DNA of 64,000 nt, taken from an uncultured Clostridia bacterium (GTDB lineage Bacteria > Bacillota > Clostridia > Christensenellales > CAG-917). The stretch covers positions 5,648 through 69,647 of the forward strand of contig CASECZ010000005.1 in assembly GCA_949286725.1 (NCBI GenBank). Reading direction: 5' to 3'. Positions 3,686 through 32,514 of the stretch are shown one piece after another (position 1 is the stretch's first letter; the number at the start of each line of letters is the position of its first letter). The position numbers and the translations under genes are program-made. The notes beneath the pieces are model-generated. The model was not told the origin of the DNA, did not search any database, and saw only the letters and a program-made list of their open reading frames with translations.

Positions 3686-6169
3686 TTATTTCTTTTTCTT
3701 CATGTTGAGTTTGTAACTGTAAGAGTCAAGCACTTTGTCCTTGCGGAAGCCTCTGCAGAAGTGAGCGAATCCGCCGCGCTTGCCGTTGCACATATCGACG
3801 ATACCCTCCACGCTTTCGGAGGAGAGTATGCCGCCCGTGAAGCCCATGAAGGAACGCAGGGGCATATATGCCACGGTGTTGACGACCATATCCCTGTTTT
3901 CGGAGTGACCCGCGACGAGTTTGGTGCCGAAGGAGATGAACCCGAGCAGCAGACGACCCACGGGCGACACGGCAACGTCGCCGAGAGAGCAGTTGCAGTC
4001 GAACTCGCCTTTCGCGTAGGGCTTGTTCTCCATAACGGACGCACCGTAGAGTGCCGCGAACTGTTCGATGGGAATGGTGCGTTTCTGTTCGTTGGTTTCG
4101 GTGAGGTCGTAGTAGTAGGGGGCGGAAGTGCGGTAGTCGGGGATGGGCGCGCCGGGGTTTGCCGACGTGACGTCAACCGACGCGTCGAGACGGATATCCG
4201 CGCTGGACGCTCCGACCAGAATGCGGAACTCGCCGCTTTCGATGTGCCAGTCTTTGATGAGCACGTTGTAGTATGCAAACGCGCGGGAGTCGAGCGTGAC
4301 GGAGACTTCTTTTTCCTCTCCGGGCGCGAGCTTCACTTTGGCGAAGCCTTTGAGTTCCTTGACGGGACGGAAGATGGAGGACTTCACGTCGCTGACGTAA
4401 ACCTGTGCGACTTCCGCACCGGCAACCTTGCCCGTGTTGCGGATTTTGAAACTCACGACGAGGTCCTCGCCTTCTTTGATTGCGGAAGAGGAGAGTTTGA
4501 GGTCGGAGTATTCGAACGTGGTGTAGGACAGACCGAACCCGAAGGGGTACATGACGGGTTTGTGCGCCGCCTCGAAATAGCGGTAGCCGACGTAAATGCT
4601 TTCGCGGTACTGGACGGAGCGCGGTCCCATCGGGAAGTAACGCGCGACGATGTTGTCGCCGTTGTTGAAGGGGAAGGTCTCCGCGAGTTTGCCGGAAGGA
4701 TTGACTTTGCCGTAAACGAGGTCGTAGGTCGCCTTGCCGACTGCCTGACCGCCGAGGTACATATTGAGGATGGCTTTCGCGTGAGGTTCGACGTTGCCGA
4801 GGGCGACGGGAGACCCGCAGGAGAGCACGACGACGATGTTGGGGTTGACCTTGGCGATTTCCTCGATGAGGATGTAGTGTGCGTCGGGCATGTTCATGTG
4901 CTTGCGGTCGAAGCCTTCGGACTCGTACTGCGGAGTGAGACCGATGAACAGCAGGACGACGTCCTTGCCCTTTGCGGTCTCGACCGCCTTCTTGACGAGA
5001 GAAGGACTGTAACCGTCACCTTTGAAGGTGTAGCCGTCGGCGTATTCGTACTTCTGACCCGCAGCATCCATGGCTTGCAGGAAAGAGGTCGTTCTGACGG
5101 GGTGGATGTGGCTGGAACCCGAACCCTGATAGCGGGGTCTCTTCGCCAGTGCGCCGATGACGGCGACGGACTGAGAGGAAGAGAGGGGCAGCACGGAGTC
5201 CTCGTTTTTGAGGAGGACGGCACTTTGGGAAGCGATTTTCGCGCAGAGCGCGTCGTGATCGTCGAAATCGAACTTGACGTTGCGTTTGTCGCGGGCTTTG
5301 CACTCGAAGGCGAACTTGATCATGCGCAGCGCGACTTTGTCGAGGTCGGCTTCGTCGAGGACGCCGTCCTTGACCGCTTTGACGATGACTTTGTCGTTTG
5401 CGCCGTTGTTGCCGGGCATTTCGAGGTCGAGCCCCGCGCGTATGCCTTCGATGCGGTTGTTGACCGCGCCCCAGTCGCTCATCACGATGCCCTTGAAGCC
5501 CCACTCGTTGCGAAGGACGTCGGTGAGCATGCGCTTGTTGTCGGAGAGGTAGGTACCGTTGAGGCGGTTGTAAGCGCACATCACCGTCGAAGGCTGTTCG
5601 GTCTTGACGATGTGTTCGAACGCGGGGAGATATATTTCGCGCAGAGCACGTTCGTCGATGATGCTGTCGATGCTCATGCGCAGGTATTCCTGGTTGTTGG
5701 CGCAGAAGTGTTTGAGCGAGACGCCCACGCCGTTTTTCTGAACTCCGTGCACCCACGCCGCGCCCATTCTGCCGGCGACGAAAGGATCTTCGGAGAAGTA
5801 CTCGAAGTTTCTTCCGCAAAGGGGGCTGCGCTTGATGTTGACGCCGGGACCGAGGACGGTCGTGACGCCGAGTCCGTGCGCCTCGTTCGCGATGGCTTCA
5901 CCCATTTCTTCGAGCAGGGAAGGATCCCAGGAACTCGCCGTCGATACGGCGGGAGGGAAACACGTTGCGGGGTAGGAGTCTTTCATGACGTTGGTGGTCA
6001 TGCTTTCCATTTCCCTGCGCAGTCCGTGAGGGCCGTCCGTCATGCAGACGGAAGGAATGTCGCCGTTTTCGATGGGGACGGTCTTCCAGAAAGTGAGACC
6101 GGAACATAATGCGGCTTTCTCTTCGAGAGACAGATTTTTCAAGATAGCGGTGTAATCCCGTTCTTCCAT
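3686..6169 (-). CDS. Glycoside hydrolase family 3 beta-glucosidase (BglX-like) with C-terminal extension
   Basis: MEERDYTAILKNLSLEEKAALCSG..., GFKGIVMSDWGA and FGFGLSYTTFEY motifs. GGAGGT RBS before M20 of ORF 3686-6226. Confidence 0.9.
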   Translation of the reverse strand: MEERDYTAILKNLSLEEKAALCSGLTFWKTVPIENGDIPSVCMTDGPHGLRREMESMTTNVMKDSYPATCFPPAVSTASSWDPSLLEEMGEAIANEAHGLGVTTVLGPGVNIKRSPLCGRNFEYFSEDPFVAGRMGAAWVHGVQKNGVGVSLKHFCANNQEYLRMSIDSIIDERALREIYLPAFEHIVKTEQPSTVMCAYNRLNGTYLSDNKRMLTDVLRNEWGFKGIVMSDWGAVNNRIEGIRAGLDLEMPGNNGANDKVIVKAVKDGVLDEADLDKVALRMIKFAFECKARDKRNVKFDFDDHDALCAKIASQSAVLLKNEDSVLPLSSSQSVAVIGALAKRPRYQGSGSSHIHPVRTTSFLQAMDAAGQKYEYADGYTFKGDGYSPSLVKKAVETAKGKDVVLLFIGLTPQYESEGFDRKHMNMPDAHYILIEEIAKVNPNIVVVLSCGSPVALGNVEPHAKAILNMYLGGQAVGKATYDLVYGKVNPSGKLAETFPFNNGDNIVARYFPMGPRSVQYRESIYVGYRYFEAAHKPVMYPFGFGLSYTTFEYSDLKLSSSAIKEGEDLVVSFKIRNTGKVAGAEVAQVYVSDVKSSIFRPVKELKGFAKVKLAPGEEKEVSVTLDSRAFAYYNVLIKDWHIESGEFRILVGASSADIRLDASVDVTSANPGAPIPDYRTSAPYYYDLTETNEQKRTIPIEQFAALYGASVMENKPYAKGEFDCNCSLGDVAVSPVGRLLLGFISFGTKLVAGHSENRDMVVNTVAYMPLRSFMGFTGGILSSESVEGIVDMCNGKRGGFAHFCRGFRKDKVLDSYSYKLNMKKKK

Positions 6170-7659: not shown

Positions 7660-8376
7660 TCAGGCTTCCGTCACAACGCGTGCGATGTGTTTCAGGGTGG
7701 TGCTCATAGGCGCGGAAAGCGACACGTTTTTGAGCAGTATTTCGCAGGGACGTTCGCGTATTATCGCGGATATGAGATTGAGTTCCGGTTTGTCAAACAG
7801 GTCGATGACCTCGACGGGTTGTTTTTGCGTGAGATTAACAAGCGCGTCGGGCGTCAACGACAGCCTGCTTTTCGCCCCGTCCGTGCCCGTGATGAAGGAG
7901 GCGACGTCGTATATGTCTCCGCCCGTGCCCGAGCCTATCAGACGGGTTGCCAGAGCAGCCATTTCCTCCCAGTTTTCAATGAGCGGACGCAACCTGAAAT
8001 TGAGAATTCCGTCCAGCGTGTAGTCCGTGGTTTCGGACAGAACGCGGCGAATGATGTTGTTTTCGTATTCGCGGTCGAAGTGCACCAAAGAGGAGATTAA
8101 CGCGCAATTTGCGTGGTTCAACTCCATATTTCGCAAATTGTCGAGAAAAAAACGCAGTTTCATAAAGACGAGCATAACCGTTTGCAAAACGTCTTCGACC
8201 TGCGGTTCCACCTCTTCGCGGAGCTCGCAAATAGACGCGAGATAAACGAAAAATCTGTCCTTGCTTTCCTCCACCGCGTACGACAGATGTCTTATGTTTT
8301 TCAGTTTTCCGAGTATGAATTCTATCTCTTTGTCGAAACCCTTATCCAGACTTATGACGTTAGACCACATAGACAC
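7660..8376 (-). CDS. Hypothetical protein, probably sporulation protein YtxC-like
   Basis: 238 aa. Size, and the LDGILNFRLRPLIENW segment, resemble my recollection of the YtxC family. This is a memory-based assignment only. Confidence 0.45.
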   Translation of the reverse strand: MSMWSNVISLDKGFDKEIEFILGKLKNIRHLSYAVEESKDRFFVYLASICELREEVEPQVEDVLQTVMLVFMKLRFFLDNLRNMELNHANCALISSLVHFDREYENNIIRRVLSETTDYTLDGILNFRLRPLIENWEEMAALATRLIGSGTGGDIYDVASFITGTDGAKSRLSLTPDALVNLTQKQPVEVIDLFDKPELNLISAIIRERPCEILLKNVSLSAPMSTTLKHIARVVTEA

Positions 8377-28391: not shown

Positions 28392-29114
28392 ATGAAAGCG
28401 TTGAAAACCGTCGTCAATTATTTCTCGAAATTCGAATTGCTTTTGTGGTGCGCTTCCGTCGTGCTCATCGTGGTGTCTTTCTGCGTTTTCGACAGGCAGA
28501 ATTACATAGCCTTTTCTGCCTCGCTTATCGGCGTTACGTCACTTATCCTTTGCGCGAAAGGCAACCCGCTCGGACAGGTGCTGATGGTCGTTTTCAGCGT
28601 TCTGTACGGCATTATTTCCTACAATTCGGCGTACTACGGCGAAATGATAACCTATCTCGGAATGAGCGCTCCGATGGCGATATTCGCACTTTTCGCATGG
28701 CTTCGCAACCCCTACAAAAATCGACGCTCCGAAGTCAGAGTCAACCGCCTCAAATGGCGCGAAATCGTCTTTGCGCTGTTGCTCACCGCAGGTGTCACGG
28801 TGGCGTTTTACTACATTCTGAGAGAACTCGGAACCGCAAACCTTCTCACCAGCACCGTTTCGGTCGCAACAAGCTTCTTTGCTGTGTATCTTACATTCAG
28901 ACGTTGCGCCTATTTTCCGCTTGCATATGCCGCCAACGACCTTGTGCTCATCGTCCTCTGGTCAATGGCAACCCACGGCGACAAATCGTATGTGTCGGTG
29001 ATAATATGTTTCGTCGTATTTCTTGTCAACGACCTGTATGGCTTTTTCAACTGGTTGCGCATGCAGAAACGCCAAAAAGAGCAGGACGCCGAACTCCCGC
29101 CCGAAAACGAATAA
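28392..29114 (+). CDS. pnuC: Nicotinamide riboside transporter PnuC family
   Basis: 240 aa, 7-8 TM segments. The ...LCAKGNPLGQVLMVVFSVLYGIISY... and C-terminal FFNWLRM regions are typical of PnuC. Confidence 0.8.
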   Translation: MKALKTVVNYFSKFELLLWCASVVLIVVSFCVFDRQNYIAFSASLIGVTSLILCAKGNPLGQVLMVVFSVLYGIISYNSAYYGEMITYLGMSAPMAIFALFAWLRNPYKNRRSEVRVNRLKWREIVFALLLTAGVTVAFYYILRELGTANLLTSTVSVATSFFAVYLTFRRCAYFPLAYAANDLVLIVLWSMATHGDKSYVSVIICFVVFLVNDLYGFFNWLRMQKRQKEQDAELPPENE

Positions 29115-29264
29115 AACTGGGTTTTGCTCATCTCAAATCAAGTAGAGCAGAGCGGTACGAATACAGATGTTTGCTTTTTGTCCGCTTTGTAGTGCCCGTG
29201 TTTTCGATTGTCGGATTATCAATAATCCACAAATCGTCACCATCTGCAGTAAACTTGTCAGGAA

Positions 29265-29317
29265 AAAGAAAAAGAGCACTTGACGTGCTCTTTTTCTGGT
29301 GACCCACCGGAGATTCG
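29265..29317 (-). repeat. Displaced copy of the tRNA-Lys(UUU) 3' end (C56 to CCA, 29297-29317) plus its terminator hairpin (29265-29296)
   Basis: 53/53 identical to 29468-29520. Confidence 0.9.
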
Positions 29318-29467
29318 TAGGAAGTCCAACCGGACTTCCGTAATAGCGAATTGCGTGCATCTGTTGGCGCAACTTGCTTTGCGCCGCACGCAATCAGCGT
29401 CAGTCCGGACTTGTCCGGAGTTCTCTCCGAAGGAGTGCTTACTGCGTAAGCAAATCTCCGTCGGAAT
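29318..29467 (-). other. ORF-less insertion carrying a conserved hairpin module (E-motif); candidate structured RNA or miniature insertion element
   Basis: Lies between the two 53-bp repeats. Positions 29338-29403 are 65/66 identical (in inverted orientation) to 31208-31273. Four hairpins; no credible ORF. Confidence 0.5.
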
Positions 29468-29499
29468 AAAGAAAAAGAGCACTTGACGTGCTCTTTTTC
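29468..29499 (-). terminator. Terminator hairpin of the five-tRNA operon (also the proximal half of the 53-bp repeat)
   Basis: GAAAAAGAGCAC-gtcaa-GTGCTCTTTTTC directly after CCA; symmetric A and T runs. Confidence 0.65.
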
Positions 29500-29575
29500 T
29501 GGTGACCCACCGGAGATTCGAACTCCGGACCATCGCATTAAAAGTGCGGTGCTCTACCTGCTGAGCTAGTGAGTC
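29500..29575 (-). tRNA. tRNA-Lys (anticodon UUU)
   Basis: GACTCAC...CGCACTTTTAATGCG...CGGAGTTCGAATCTCCGGTGGGTCACCA; cloverleaf fits, CCA encoded. Confidence 0.92.
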
Positions 29576-29580
29576 ATTTC

Positions 29581-29655
29581 TGGCAGGGGTAGCTGGATTC
29601 GAACCAACGAATGCCAGAATCAAAATCTGGTGCCTTACCGCTTGGCGATACCCCT
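29581..29655 (-). tRNA. tRNA-Gln (anticodon UUG)
   Basis: AGGGGTATCGCCAAGCGGTAAGGCACCAGATTTTGATTCTGG...GGTTCGAATCCAGCTACCCCTGCCA. Confidence 0.92.
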
Positions 29656-29687
29656 TTGACTCGGTAAGACCGAGATTTGAGTCAATG

Positions 29688-29765
29688 TGGGGTGAGTAGT
29701 GGGATTCGAACCCACGGCCTTCAGGGCCACAACCTGACGCGCTAACCAACTGCGCTATACCCACC
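29688..29765 (-). tRNA. tRNA-His (anticodon GUG) with encoded G-1
   Basis: GGTGGGTATAGCGCAGTTGGTTAGCGCGTCAGGTTGTGGCCCTGA...GGGTTCGAATCCCACTACTCACCCCA. Confidence 0.92.
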
Positions 29766-29769
29766 ATAA

Positions 29770-29846
29770 TGGCGAGCCAGAAGAGATTCGAACTCCCGAC
29801 ACACGGCTTAGAAGGCCGTTGCTCTATCCTGCTGAGCTACTGGCTC
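29770..29846 (-). tRNA. tRNA-Arg (anticodon UCU)
   Basis: GAGCCAGTAGCTCAGCAGGATAGAGCAACGGCCTTCTAAGCCG...GGGAGTTCGAATCTCTTCTGGCTCGCCA. Confidence 0.92.
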
Positions 29847-29851
29847 AAAGT

Positions 29852-29925
29852 TGGAGCGGGTGATGGGAATCGGACCCACGCGACCAGCTTGGAAGGCTGG
29901 TATTCTACCATTGAACTACACCCGC
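29852..29925 (-). tRNA. tRNA-Gly (anticodon UCC), T-loop TCCGATT (C at position 55)
   Basis: GCGGGTGTAGTTCAATGGTAGAATACCAGCCTTCCAAGCTGG...GTGGGTCCGATTCCCATCACCCGCTCCA. Confidence 0.85.
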
Positions 29926-29970
29926 ACGTGTTCCGAGCGCACACCATAAGGCTATTTTCGATGCTTGAAG

Positions 29971-29999
29971 ATTTTACCATACTAAAATGCGCTTGTCAA
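29971..29999 (-). promoter_or_regulatory. Promoter of the Gly-Arg-His-Gln-Lys tRNA operon
   Basis: On the minus strand: TTGACA, 17-nt spacer, TAAAAT, about 45 nt upstream of tRNA-Gly. Confidence 0.55.
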
Positions 30000-30487
30000 C
30001 GATTTTGACATCTTATGACGCAAAGAAAAATGCACGACAGCACTCATTAATAACTATTCGAAGATTTGAAGAAAGAATTTGATTTGTATGGAGGTATCGA
30101 TAAAGTTTTACAACACGATAAGTGTTATATTTTGTCTTACAATCTGCAATGTAAAACACGATACGTGTATATAATATTTTTTTACATAATAATATCCCTT
30201 CCGATAGCGCCGTTTTACTGTCATATCGGCAAATTTAACACACGAAACGTATTTTATATATTTGTGGTATTCTGCCATTACGCATCGACAAACCTGATTA
30301 GACAGGGCGGCTGTAAGACTCCATATGAGATTCGACTGTGAGCATCTTGCTTTCCGAATTTAGGTGCCATTGAAATTTTGATAGAAAATCGTAGAATTAA
30401 CTGATAATACACAACAAAAAAACGGGGAATCTTAAATTGTACGTTTTGGCGTGCCGAAACAACATAAAAAAGTCTATACAGCAGATA
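30000..30487. other. AT-rich non-coding island between the two tRNA clusters
   Basis: By eye, individual 60-nt lines are about 25-35% GC, against about 55-60% in the flanks. Only a TTG-initiated 91-aa ORF of low-complexity composition is present. Confidence 0.6.
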
Positions 30488-30500
30488 ACGCGCAAATAAC

Positions 30501-30532
30501 CTCTGCGCAAATGGTGCAGCCGAAGGGACTTG
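30501..30532 (-). repeat. Displaced copy of the tRNA-Leu(UAG) 3' end (C56 to CCA) plus part of its terminator
   Basis: 32/32 identical to 30698-30729. The adjacent terminator arm is degenerate. Confidence 0.9.
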
Positions 30533-30697
30533 CTCCGCTTGGCTTGTCACCTTACACACGCACTGCACAGGATGACACACACACTCGCACTCCTTTCCGT
30601 TGCCCGCGCTATCACGCCTGGGCGGGGCAACAATTCTTATGGATTGTTGCCTTTTCCGCCCGTTCAAGTCCCGTATAATGAATAATGCGCAGAGAGT
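30533..30697 (-). other. ORF-less insertion behind tRNA-Leu (different sequence family from the Lys inserts)
   Basis: Bounded by the 32-bp repeats. Contains a long hairpin GGGCGG-aaaa-GGCAACAAT...ATTGTTGCC-CCGCCC, a GT-rich tract, and an inverted 11-nt copy of the tRNA T-arm. Confidence 0.5.
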
Positions 30698-30708
30698 CTC
30701 TGCGCAAA

Positions 30709-30791
30709 TGGTGCAGCCGAAGGGACTTGAACCCATACGGTTTCCCACCGGAACCTAAATCCGGCGCGTCTGCCAATTTCGCCACGGCTGC
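30709..30791 (-). tRNA. tRNA-Leu (anticodon UAG)
   Basis: GCAGCCGTGGCGAAATTGGCAGACGCGCCGGATTTAGGTTCCGG...ATGGGTTCAAGTCCCTTCGGCTGCACCA; long variable arm. Confidence 0.88.
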
Positions 30792-30916
30792 AAGCCACTT
30801 TATTATATCATAATCGCCCAAGATGTAAAGCAAAAGCCCTCTGCCACGGAAAATTGCACAATTAGCGAAAAATCTCTTGCTTTTTTTACAATAGTTTGTT
30901 ATATTAGTACTCGCTC

Positions 30917-30991
30917 GCGGGAGTGACTCAGTGGTAGAGTGTCACCTTGCCAAGGTGAAAGTCGCGGGTCCGAATCCCGTCTCCCGCTCCA
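30917..30991 (+). tRNA. tRNA-Gly (anticodon GCC), T-loop TCCGAAT (C at position 55)
   Basis: GCGGGAGTGACTCAGTGGTAGAGTGTCACCTTGCCAAGGTGAAAGTCGCGGGTCCGAATCCCGTCTCCCGCTCCA. Confidence 0.88.
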
Positions 30992-31040
30992 TTCCAAAGT
31001 TAGCGACGATGACCGCAAATTGCGTATTCGTCGCGAAAAT

Positions 31041-31116
31041 GCGCCCTTAGCTCAGCTGGTAGAGCAACTGACTCTTAATCAGTGGGTCCCGGGTTCGAAT
31101 CCCTGAGGGCGCACCA
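31041..31116 (+). tRNA. tRNA-Lys (anticodon CUU)
   Basis: GCGCCCTTAGCTCAGCTGGTAGAGCAACTGACTCTTAATCAGTGGGTCCCGGGTTCGAATCCCTGAGGGCGCACCA. Has one C50:U64 mismatch in the T-stem. Confidence 0.85.
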
Positions 31117-31224
31117 AAAACACCGCTAAATGCGGTGTTATTCTTTTGCCCGAAGGGATTTATATTTCCAATATCCGCCTTATGGCGGAGAACCCGGGCA
31201 CACCCGGCTGACGCTGATTGCGTG
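31096..31224 (+). repeat. First copy of the 200-bp-period repeat. Contents: tRNA-Lys(CUU) C56 to CCA, terminator, spacer, and the 5' part of the E-motif
   Basis: Aligns to 31296-31426. 96/98 identical over the first 98 nt, then a swapped hairpin, then an identical CTGACGCTGATTGCGTG. Confidence 0.9.
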
Positions 31225-31295
31225 CGGCGCAAAGCGAGTTGCGCCAACAGATGCACGCAATTCGCTATTACGGCAGCCGCTGGGCTTGCTGCCTA
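31175..31295 (+). other. Complete E-motif copy (hp0, AGAAC, hp1, 66-nt core, hp3, TA) ending at the displaced tRNA-Lys(CUU) 3' fragment
   Basis: Core 31208-31273 is 65/66 identical to the reverse complement of 29338-29403. The flanking hairpins are compensatory variants of those at 29318-29435. Confidence 0.5.
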
Positions 31296-31426
31296 CGAAT
31301 CCCTGAGGGCGCACCAAAAACACCGCTAAATGCGGTGTTTTTCTTTTGCCCGAAGGGATTTATATTTCCAATATCCGCCTCATGGCGGAGAACTCCGGAC
31401 AAGTCCGGACTGACGCTGATTGCGTG
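31296..31426 (+). repeat. Second, truncated repeat unit. Contents: displaced tRNA 3' fragment 31296-31316, terminator, spacer, hp0, hp1, first 17 nt of the core
   Basis: Similarity to the full unit stops after GATTGCGTG at 31426. Its hp1 is the TCCGGAcaagTCCGGA variant seen at the Lys(UUU) locus. Confidence 0.85.
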
Positions 31427-31538
31427 AGCGCTAACGGAAAAGCTGCTGACAAACCGATATAACAGGATTTCGTTGAAATAAAACGCGTGGTTAGAATAGT
31501 GAAATACGGCTTATTTTTACCGATTGGTGTTGAAATGT

Positions 31539-32414
31539 TCAGCGTTCGGAAGAGGACATTGCCTGATATTCCGAAGGGGTAAGCCCTGTGACCTGTTTGA
31601 ATTTGCGTATGAAATACGCGGGGTCGTCGTAGCCGACTTCCGCGGCGACGGCTTGTATTTTGATGCTGCGGTTTTGGAGCAGTTCTTTTGCTTTGCTTAT
31701 TCGCATTGAGAGTATATACTGCGACAACGTGGTTTTCATTGTCTGGCTGAACAGTCTGGAAAAATAGGTCGGGCTCACCATACACAGCGCCGCGAGTTCG
31801 TGTATCGTGATTTGCGACTTGTAATGTTGTTCGATATAGCGCAGGGCGGGTTGCAATTTGTTGTAATTGCTCGCGGTTTTCGTCGAATGGTCTTCGAGTT
31901 CCAGCAGAATGCCGAAATGATTGATGTAATCCGCAAGTTTTGAAACGAGTTTGGACATTTCCAAAAAGCGTTCTTCCTCGACTTGCGGCATATTGTCATA
32001 TATTTTTTTGAGTTCGGGGTGGTTTTCGAGGGAAATGGGTGCGTAGATATAGTCCAGCTTGTCATCGGAAATGTTCGAACGGGTGGACCCGCCGCAGATT
32101 GCACCGATGTGTTCCCCCTTATAAAAGAGAGGCACAGAAAAATCTATAAGTCCGTAAGCGCACTTGTAGTAGTGGGTTTTGCCTCGGCGGGCCGCTTCGA
32201 AGGATGCGTGACTTGCCGCCGCAAGGCAAGCCGTGCGGATTGCGGGGTCCTGGCGCGCGCACTTGCAGAAAATGGCGTCGTTGCAGGGGTAGATGATGAT
32301 GTTGCCGAGCGTATCCAACACGCACAGATTCATCCCCGTTGCCTTTGCAACGGAGTCCAGAGTCAATGTAAGCTTGTCCAGCGATACTATCTCTTCGAGT
32401 CTGTGTGAAGTCAT
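31539..32414 (-). CDS. AraC-family transcriptional regulator with N-terminal PocR sensory domain
   Basis: 291 aa. PocR-like N-terminus (CKCARQDPAIRTAC...YYKCAYGLIDFSVPLFYKGEHIGAICGG) and a C-terminal AraC HTH (ITIHELAALCMVSPTYFSRLFSQ...GYDDPAYFIRKFKQVTG). Confidence 0.85.
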   Translation of the reverse strand: MTSHRLEEIVSLDKLTLTLDSVAKATGMNLCVLDTLGNIIIYPCNDAIFCKCARQDPAIRTACLAAASHASFEAARRGKTHYYKCAYGLIDFSVPLFYKGEHIGAICGGSTRSNISDDKLDYIYAPISLENHPELKKIYDNMPQVEEERFLEMSKLVSKLADYINHFGILLELEDHSTKTASNYNKLQPALRYIEQHYKSQITIHELAALCMVSPTYFSRLFSQTMKTTLSQYILSMRISKAKELLQNRSIKIQAVAAEVGYDDPAYFIRKFKQVTGLTPSEYQAMSSSER

Positions 32415-32458
32415 TTTGTTCCTACAGATTTTTCAATTTGTTTTAATAAAATCAGCCA

Positions 32459-32514
32459 TTTGTCAATATTGTACAACAAAATAGTACAATATGTCTGCAT
32501 TTTTGTCAATTGTA
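32459..32514. promoter_or_regulatory. Direct and inverted repeats in the divergent intergenic region (candidate AraC-family operator)
   Basis: TTTGTCAATATTGTA (32459-32473) and TTTGTCAATTGTA (32502-32514). Inverted repeat ATTGTAC (32468-32474) / GTACAAT (32484-32490). Confidence 0.35.

Follow-up and report, generated by a model that had tools for sequence, protein, structure and literature searches.

Transfer RNA (tRNA) genes are classic landing sites of phages and genomic islands, while their smallest occupants are almost unstudied. Tyrosine integrases reportedly use the T-loop sublocation of tRNA genes for attP/attB recombination. Gene-less units of similar size are the microCIMEs of Streptococcus salivarius, which, in the passages of PMC7563491 that describe them, are 130-220 bp long, are flanked by attachment (att) sites and are always the farthest from the target gene among tandem elements. 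In those passages microCIMEs and CIMEs are cis-mobilizable elements, decayed remnants left by integrative and conjugative elements (ICEs) or by integrative and mobilizable elements (IMEs), with their att sites retained. In a stretch of 64,000 nucleotides (nt) from an uncultured Clostridia bacterium (contig CASECZ010000005.1), hereafter the window, the genes for tRNA-Lys(UUU), tRNA-Leu(UAG) and tRNA-Lys(CUU) are each followed by a small insert that most resembles microCIMEs so far as these passages describe them: the inserts are gene-less, their size of about 142-150 nt lies within the 130-220 bp range, their direct repeats derive from the 3' end of the target gene, and they stand in tandem with other integrated elements, the most decayed copy being farthest from the target gene. 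The differences are that the targets here are tRNA T-loops in uncultured Clostridia, that the collections scanned (given below) yielded no parent ICE, IME or phage whose ends match, and that the inserts have an antisense copy of the T-arm and compensatory hairpins, neither of which is mentioned in the same passages of PMC7563491. The antisense arm is unexplained by the microCIME frame.

The tRNA genes were located by ARAGORN and Rfam, and the repeats of the window by direct and inverted repeat comparison. All three loci follow a common plan, in which the tRNA leads into an intrinsic terminator, the insert, a duplicate of the tRNA 3' end (C56 to CCA) and a second terminator. The units measure 203, 200 and 197 nt, and the direct repeats flanking them 61, 103 and 48 nt; each repeat begins at tRNA position 56 and continues through the CCA and the terminator. 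Open reading frames (ORFs) crossing the inserts are all spurious. The two Lys inserts have a 74-nt core in common at 95% identity, with unlike flanks. The Leu insert body is unrelated to the Lys inserts, matching only itself in nhmmer, and the bodies of further inserts at tRNA-Gly and tRNA-His, described below, are likewise unrelated to the Lys bodies.

An earlier note on this DNA, made from the letters alone, had pointed to a short segment beyond each terminator that is complementary to its own tRNA, and all its coordinates and sequences were found correct at the three loci. At Lys(UUU), the complement of AATCTCCG (29453-29460) is CGGAGATT, which occurs both in the tRNA (29511-29518) and in the displaced tail (29308-29315); at Lys(CUU), AGGGATT (31154-31160 and again 31354-31360) has its complement in AATCCCT (31098-31104 and 31298-31304); and at Leu(UAG), the partner of GTTCAAGTCCC (30662-30672) is GGGACTTGAAC (30722-30732), the displaced copy at 30525-30532 pairing with only 8 nt of the segment. 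By ARAGORN and Rfam, the partners fall in the T-loop and the T-stem 3' strand of all three tRNAs. At both Lys loci extra pairs (CC in UUU, GCCC in CUU) come after a 2x2 mismatch. The segment is nevertheless not a stand-alone 7-11 nt motif: it belongs to the 3' arm of a larger tRNA-derived inverted repeat, in which the tRNA 3' half is copied in inverted orientation about the terminator. In both Lys inserts this arm is antisense to tRNA positions 47-70 over the first ~75 nt, broken at T-loop position 57/58 by a 29-nt hairpin stretch, and carries a conserved GA dinucleotide opposite tRNA positions 65-67. The tRNA 3' end and the arm form a long quasi-palindrome with the terminator as apex, its two sides being 29 nt each and 79% complementary at Lys(CUU). 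The arm crosses the crossover point, so that it matches the uninterrupted target.

The complementarity is far beyond chance. In 500 shuffles with Watson-Crick pairs only, the p value of the arm match was <=0.002 at Lys(UUU) and at Leu, and 0.016 at Lys(CUU). Insert-bearing tRNAs have longest antisense matches of 8-11 nt, compared with 0-7 nt in the 200 nt downstream of insert-free tRNAs in the window and in loci of related species, barring matches of 9-10 nt that reach a neighbouring insert. Matches of 5-7 nt were found for 15 tRNAs in unrelated loci (same-species loci set aside), and the same 5-7 nt for three classical E. coli attL sites and one real prophage attL of a sister strain. For every insert the cognate tRNA is the best or equal-best Watson-Crick match. 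The complement does change with the tRNA, as the earlier note had it.

Related loci were obtained via the neighbouring Metallophos and NMN-transporter genes, so that all further examples come by synteny from about five related species, with about seven insert families in total available for comparison; the loci of two NMN-transporter (PnuC) homologues, P0008 and P0113, had no conserved gene order. The same architecture was found in four further uncultured Clostridia species, sp2 to sp5. Behind tRNA-Lys(UUU) of sp2 (L154), two to three units, the last truncated, have the arm GAGATTCGAAC, the reverse complement of tRNA positions 53-63, and a tail from A59. At the same tRNA in sp3 (L193-L197, L205), one to three units have a near-complete reverse complement of 49-71 (ACCCGTCGGTGACGAGAACTCCG), the sense sequence GGAGTTC after the arm and a tail from T60; the arm of this family (X3) pairs with 63-71 and 49-56. 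The Lys(UUU) insert of sp4 (L185, L187) is homologous to that of sp3 (nhmmer E = 0.003), with an arm complementary to 49-76 that runs on into the antisense of the terminator's first half, and a tail from C62. In sp5 (L204, human gut), inserts lie inside a tRNA operon: one at tRNA-Gly(UCC), where the arm GGGAATTGGAC is antisense to 53-63 with a single G·T and the tail is decayed, and one at tRNA-His with the arm GGATTCGAAC and no identified tail. The possibility that the sp5 Gly insert is homologous to the Lys core (GCGTAAAGCAAGATTGC vs GCGCAAAGCAAGTTGCG) was considered and found unsupported by MAFFT and nhmmer. The two sp5 inserts, of 180-195 nt with anti-T-loop arms, lie between the Gly and Arg and the His and Gln genes (L204 4626-4805 and 4965-5158); in the latter a promoter-like TTGCAA-N17-TAAGAT, judged by eye, precedes tRNA-Gln. 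Gene callers place ORFs of 50-59 amino acids in the sp3 repeat units (L193/L194 5601-5938; L195 5540-5900), which are probably spurious, and a small protein in the sp3 unit (Shine-Dalgarno and ATG, a 61-codon frame through tail and terminator) was rejected, the start being ATT in L195.

From these examples a general unit can be drawn. A terminator is followed by the ARM, which is antisense to the tRNA 3' half; after a tight loop comes LEFT, a sense copy of the T-stem 5' strand, and then the BODY, RIGHT (the sense tail that starts in the T-loop) and a further terminator. The ARM pairs with both LEFT and RIGHT, so that the BODY loops out at the T-loop. Tail starts at 56, 56, 56, 59 and 60 lie inside the T-loop, and the sp4 start at 62 just outside. 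The arm occurs in five species, at five tRNA types (Lys(UUU), Lys(CUU), Leu, Gly and His), and among non-homologous inserts; this recurrence suggests that it is tied to a process rather than to a single RNA family. In four unrelated inserts the arms (reverse complement of 53-63, or 53-62 in His) share an end at the complement of G53, and the perfect T-loop complementarity of the arms contrasts sharply with random acceptor-side sequence. The Leu and sp2 arms match the intact tRNA over 11 nt and the displaced tail over only 8 and 5 nt, respectively. Within the homologous sp3 and sp4 family, the hairpin GAACTCC/GGAGTTC of sp3 is replaced by GAACCCC/GGGGTTC in sp4, tracking the T-stem difference. 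Constant elements, a GAGAAC motif and the GA dinucleotide, lie between the variable tRNA-matched segments in the Lys and sp3 families.

The units are polymorphic among strains, as was seen in metagenome contigs encoding identical flanking proteins. Five alleles were found at Lys(UUU), where six contigs have an empty site with the terminator only and four carry the insert. Empty alleles contain one repeat copy, and the window-type allele consists of terminator, insert, tail and terminator. In a third allele (L097 and L100) a standard proximal terminator is combined with a variant distal one, so that an element carrying its own tail and terminator fits better than a local duplication of the target. 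Two further alleles lack the terminator (L095/L104 and L111), with junctions at the tRNA 3' end, where CACC is followed by TTACTGCAG and CACCA by TGCAG (compare window 29253-29500); either a terminator module was gained or it was lost twice independently. The region contains many independent indel alleles besides. At Lys(CUU), L111 and L105 lack the full copy and keep only the truncated one. At Lys(CUU), in sp2 and in sp3, the distal copy that closes the array is truncated and more diverged. In L107 the order is tRNA, prophage, insert and truncated insert, which indicates that small units are pushed outward; L105 is alike, and the window itself is without a functional element. A copy of the Lys-insert core beside an AraC-type regulator gene in a sister species with flanking proteins ~85-90% identical (L183 10765-10826) matches the position of the window copy at 31344-31426, so that the truncated copy is probably older than the split of both species.

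The same tRNAs are integration hot spots, with tyrosine-integrase and serine-recombinase prophages there in other strains. One tyrosine-integrase prophage lies in the anticodon loop of tRNA-Lys(CUU), its attR identity beginning at CTCTTAATCAG; the start of the Lys(CUU) insert has only a weak resemblance to a prophage P' arm. The anticodon-loop prophage (L097 8700-10036; L099 6290-7429; L105 and L107 6900-7400) carries a terminator of its own and repeats of the arm-type motif GATGTCAA, and an integrase-less remnant of its P' arm follows tRNA-Lys(CUU) in sp2 (L154 7345-7460). In L100 (6866-8507), a large-serine-recombinase prophage, its far end off the contig, lies against the Lys(UUU) T-loop upstream of the insert, where it borders a degenerate tRNA-Lys(UUU) tail (GTTCGAATAACTCCTTGTGTGGGTCACCA); its recombinase ORF call meets no stop codon and so extends through the insert. 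Short local duplications within tRNA genes of some metagenome contigs (L099 6290-6320; L111 ~4330-4460, reverse strand; for example CAGCTGGTAGAGCATAGCTCAGCTGGTAGAGC) resemble assembly artefacts and confuse tRNA callers.

Folding adds a strand preference to this picture. For the Lys(UUU) insert alone, both strands fold equally well, at -77.7 and -77.4 kcal/mol (z = -6.5 each). When the upstream T-arm is included, the sense strand is favoured by 4-6 kcal/mol at the Lys loci and by 18 in sp3, by about 1 kcal/mol at Leu and not at all in sp2. In that fold tRNA 47-69 is paired with the arm, while the terminator and P1 branch off; this agrees with the register of the arm and upholds the earlier prediction of pairing with the upstream T-arm. 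The other structure predicted there, a long-range helix from the arm to the displaced tail, is present in the minimum-energy fold of 29297-29467 (minus strand) but is not conserved, being reduced to 8 nt at Leu and 5 nt in sp2 and involving other tail segments in sp3. The two Lys copies support a 43-pair consensus structure with 8 compensatory pairs in the closing helix, P1b, P2 and P4, and an extra G·U pair in the shared core is retained in both. Relative to a perfect antisense, all 12 transitions in the arms are A-to-G or C-to-T, retaining G·U or G·T on the tRNA-sense strand, with 0 of the opposite type and 16 transversions; about seven of the 12 are independent events, for roughly p = 0.01. 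It thus appears that pairing within a single-stranded sense strand, either RNA or DNA, is constrained.

These data show the anatomy of the units, their polymorphism, the arm's tracking of its tRNA and the strand-specific pairing constraint. Our leading reading, put forward tentatively, is that the inserts may be T-loop-targeted, gene-less, microCIME-like integration cassettes and that the arm may be part of a folded attachment-site structure. A unit would enter through recombination inside the T-loop and supply a replacement tRNA 3' end and terminator, so that the tRNA would remain intact and its original 3' end would be displaced downstream as the direct repeat. Repeated entry would produce tandem arrays with the oldest, decaying copy farthest from the tRNA, and recombination between the repeats would remove a unit precisely. 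The ARM, in a single-stranded sense strand, might pair with the T-arm on both sides of the crossover and so rebuild a duplex attachment site, by analogy with other folded sites. The T-loop repeat boundaries, the restored tRNA, the precise empty sites, the distal-oldest arrays and the use of the same sites by prophages all argue for site-specific integration at the T-loop; presence/absence polymorphism, tandem arrays and T-loop repeat boundaries together point to an origin by DNA recombination, which the earlier note had not considered. Mobility as such is deduced from the pattern of presence and absence. Simpler duplications fare less well: a simple tandem duplication for the Lys(CUU) array was rejected, since the distal copy diverges inside the core rather than at its end, and a simple target-site duplication at Lys(UUU) is weakened by the unlike terminators of L097 and L100. 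Analogies with IS91, Helitrons, casposons, group II introns, Tn7-like elements and retroviral primer-binding sites fail on repeat length, end sequences or missing genes.

Several observations weigh against integration cassettes. No full-length parent element sharing ends with any insert was found in exact-seed scans of genome, metagenome and viral collections, diverged relatives lying beyond the reach of exact seeds. A Lys core seed gave 92 chance matches and no extended one in the viral collection, where a second seed gave none; a gapped pattern of the Lys core gave none among GTDB representatives; an 18-mer seed gave 31 chance matches; a Lys core 19-mer gave 9 chance matches in Joint Genome Institute (JGI) metagenomes; seeds from the Leu, sp2 and sp3 inserts gave none in viral contigs; and BLAST of the Lys(UUU) unit against phages gave no match. 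No recombinase adjoins the inserts, and tblastn found no homologue in the window of three recombinases from neighbouring strains. No inverted core-type site is present just left of the crossover in the would-be attP; for example, GGACTTCCTA, which meets CGAAT at the crossover, is not an inverted T-stem 3' strand. An antisense arm is not a known att property and was not seen in the four attL controls. The wobble bias suits RNA equally well, and the polymorphism may be one of loss only, since deletion between repeats yields the same empty sites. Finally, species with only 57-66% identity in the flanking enzyme still have a related architecture behind tRNA-Lys(UUU), a persistence that is unexpected for junk.

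An alternative that extends the view of the earlier note, and that we regard as possible though rather unlikely, is that the inserts act at the RNA level after transcription through read-through of the tRNA terminator or within a tRNA operon. In one such role the arm would pair with the displaced tail and LEFT, closing a structured RNA; in another it would invade the upstream T-arm, and the long hairpin would mark read-through transcripts for cleavage, an insulator resembling lambda sib/tI. The minimum-energy folds include both structures, the 12:0 transitions retain G·U on the transcribed strand as does the core pair kept in both Lys copies, hairpins P1, P2 and P4 vary in sequence with their pairing retained, the architecture is kept across diverged species, and the sp5 Gly insert, inside a tRNA operon with no terminator before it, must be transcribed. 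An arm that acted as RNA would give inserted DNA a new means of handling read-through from strong tRNA promoters. Yet a scan for sigma-70-like promoters found none in any insert, terminators acting in both directions flank the units, and a strong one precedes most inserts. Rfam 15 over 28500-32500 at E <= 1 returned only tRNA models, other matches falling far under the gathering scores, and the unrelated Leu, Gly and His bodies speak against a single RNA family. The independent RNA of ~165 nt predicted earlier is unproven, and the opposite strand of the insert alone folds equally well. Moreover, the paired part of the tail differs by family, displaced tails decay in distal copies, and an RNA role alone leaves unexplained the T-loop repeat boundaries, the arrays and the empty sites. 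Retron non-coding RNAs are closed by terminal inverted repeats and have a reverse transcriptase gene beside them; in a comparison with retrons, the terminal pairing of the Lys(UUU) insert is present in the fold, and the annotated neighbours at ~21-40 kb are housekeeping genes.

Base pairing could also serve recognition: the arm might be a target-recognition guide or splint that pairs with the T-loop flanks, as RNA or single-stranded DNA, and directs insertion or excision by an enzyme supplied in trans, a logic likened to the guide sequences of IS200/IS605 or the bridge RNAs of IS110. We hold this to be improbable, and equally so its full form, in which the inserts would be a hitherto undescribed class of tRNA-targeting mini-elements whose antisense T-arm co-evolves with the tRNA; if true, base pairing, and not only recognition by a protein, would determine the choice of target and possibly excision. 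Such a guide would fit the alternation of variable tRNA-matched segments with the constant GA and GAGAAC positions in the Lys and sp3 families, the shared end of four unrelated arms at the complement of G53, the span of the arm over the crossover point of an uninterrupted target, and the pairing of ARM with LEFT and RIGHT around a looped-out BODY. No candidate enzyme was found, however, known guide-using elements do not make direct repeats of 50-60 nt, gene conversion within the palindrome could equally keep the arm matched, and only about seven families are at hand to judge from. The same palindrome might instead be a non-functional by-product of replication or repair, in which fold-back priming and template switching at palindromic terminators would yield an inverted tRNA 3' end and local tandem duplications. 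Equal or nearly equal sides of the internal loops (29 vs 29 nt at Lys(CUU), 13 vs 13 in sp2, 12 vs 11 at Lys(UUU)), the almost continuous arm of sp3, the entry of the sp4 arm into the terminator antisense and the many indel alleles are in keeping with such an origin, which we nonetheless think has little chance of being correct: it leaves unaccounted for a core 95% identical at two different tRNAs, the G53 end common to unrelated arms, perfect T-loop complementarity beside random acceptor-side sequence, the transition bias and the compensatory changes in the hairpins.

Features of the three tRNA-associated units in the window (positions in window coordinates; D and I denote direct and inverted repeats)
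Feature	Position	Strand	Basis or remark
tRNA-Lys(UUU), intact gene	29500-29575	-	ARAGORN; Rfam tRNA 65.6 bits
Proximal intrinsic terminator of tRNA-Lys(UUU), apex of long quasi-palindrome	29468-29499	-	Identical to scored distal terminator; within direct repeat D2
Lys(UUU) arm block 1, CCGACGGAGATT on the minus strand, reverse complement of tRNA 58-69 with GA replacing AC; holds the segment of the earlier note	29453-29464	-	
Lys(UUU) arm interruption, 29 nt, two small hairpins P1a and P1b	29424-29452	-	Folding, alignment
Lys(UUU) arm block 2, GAACTCCGGAC, reverse complement of tRNA 47-57	29413-29423	-	Alignment; 0/300 shuffles matched score
GTCCGGA, sense copy of tRNA-Lys(UUU) 47-53 (T-stem 5' strand); forms hairpin P2 with block 2	29404-29410		
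Lys(UUU) insert core, nested inverted repeats with TTGCG motif	29335-29408	-	Inverted repeat I1 with 31203-31276
Lys(UUU) hairpin P4, directly before displaced tail	29320-29339	-	Compensatory changes vs Lys(CUU) copy
Displaced duplicate of tRNA-Lys(UUU) 3' end (C56 to CCA)	29297-29317	-	Repeat D2; missing from empty-site strains
Distal terminator at Lys(UUU); sole terminator copy in empty-site strains	29267-29296	-	
tRNA-Leu(UAG)	30709-30791	-	ARAGORN, Rfam
Proximal terminator of tRNA-Leu	30686-30708	-	Terminator scoring
Leu antisense arm, GGGACTTGAAC, reverse complement of tRNA-Leu 53-63	30662-30672	-	Watson-Crick only, p = 0 in 500 shuffles
Leu insert body	30533-30661	-	nhmmer, self only
Displaced duplicate of tRNA-Leu 3' end (C56 to CCA)	30512-30532	-	Repeat D4
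Distal, degenerate terminator copy at Leu	30490-30511	-	Repeat D4, 90% identity
tRNA-Lys(CUU)	31041-31116	+	ARAGORN, Rfam
Proximal terminator of tRNA-Lys(CUU)	31117-31143	+	Terminator scoring
Lys(CUU) arm block 1, GCCCGAAGGGATT, reverse complement of tRNA 58-70 with GA replacing TC	31148-31160	+	Inverted repeat I9
Lys(CUU) arm interruption, 29 nt, same T-loop position as in Lys(UUU) insert	31161-31189	+	
Lys(CUU) arm block 2, GAACCCGGG, reverse complement of tRNA 49-57	31190-31198	+	Alignment
Lys(CUU) insert core, common to Lys(UUU) insert	31203-31276	+	Inverted repeat I1
Lys(CUU) hairpin P4	31272-31293	+	Compensatory comparison of Lys copies
Displaced duplicate of tRNA-Lys(CUU) 3' end	31296-31316	+	Repeat D1
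Second terminator copy at Lys(CUU)	31317-31343	+	Sequence, repeats
Older copy X' at Lys(CUU), 3'-truncated, more diverged; retains arm, interruption, P2 and 17 nt of core	31344-31426	+	

Between the two tRNA clusters of the window lies an AT-rich non-coding stretch of ~550 nt (29930-30480) with repeated palindromes, ACACGATACGTGT, at 30109-30125 and 30152-30168. Similar palindromes occur at the equivalent place in sp2 (L154 ~7790-7870), and they resemble operator sites for some regulator. For annotation, the units account for stray tRNA 3' fragments, spurious ORFs and contig breaks near tRNA clusters in assemblies of gut Clostridia.

Compared with tyrosine-integrase attachment sites at T-loops, the inserts share the identity block from the T-loop through the tRNA 3' end, the restored tRNA and the use of tRNA hot spots. 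They differ in being without an integrase gene, in showing no inverted core-type site beside the crossover, in an identity block that passes through the terminator and in a core-complementary arm 45-60 nt away. The lambda sib/tI arrangement likewise has an extended terminator-containing hairpin beside an attachment site, formed only in read-through transcripts, whereas the inserts have no int gene to regulate and no evidence of RNase III cleavage, and the lower stem of their hairpin is tRNA sequence. The guides of IS200/IS605 elements are 4-5 nt long and lie 5' of a subterminal hairpin, and their insertions leave no direct repeat. The inserts resemble them in a short element-borne segment that pairs with the target beside a hairpin, in a strand-specific, single-strand logic and in precise excision. 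In contrast to these elements and their miniature derivatives (PATE), the inserts are flanked by direct repeats of 48-103 nt, which sets them outside the miniature elements; no TnpA, TnpB or IscB was found near them, and no Rfam match of HEARO or omega-RNA type.

In integron attC and CTX phage attP(+), a folded single strand rebuilds the duplex recombination site. The inserts depart from attC in having no R''/R' consensus (RYYYAAC/GTTRRRY), as GTTCGAA and GTTCAAG do not fit GTTRRRY, and in an inter-unit repeat of 50-100 nt, compared with ~7 nt in integrons. No integrase is present in the annotated neighbourhood of the inserts, no involvement of IntI or Xer is shown, and the palindrome here consists of a tRNA 3' end and its terminator. 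What they share with attC and CTX attP is an imperfect palindrome of ~75-80 nt with pairing ends, internal mismatches and strand-specific folding, together with tandem cassette arrays in which new units lie beside the primary site. If the arm is indeed part of an attachment site, recombination at tRNA sites could proceed through a folded single strand, like that of integrons and the CTX phage, and a cis-acting unit of ~200 nt would be the minimum for such recombination.

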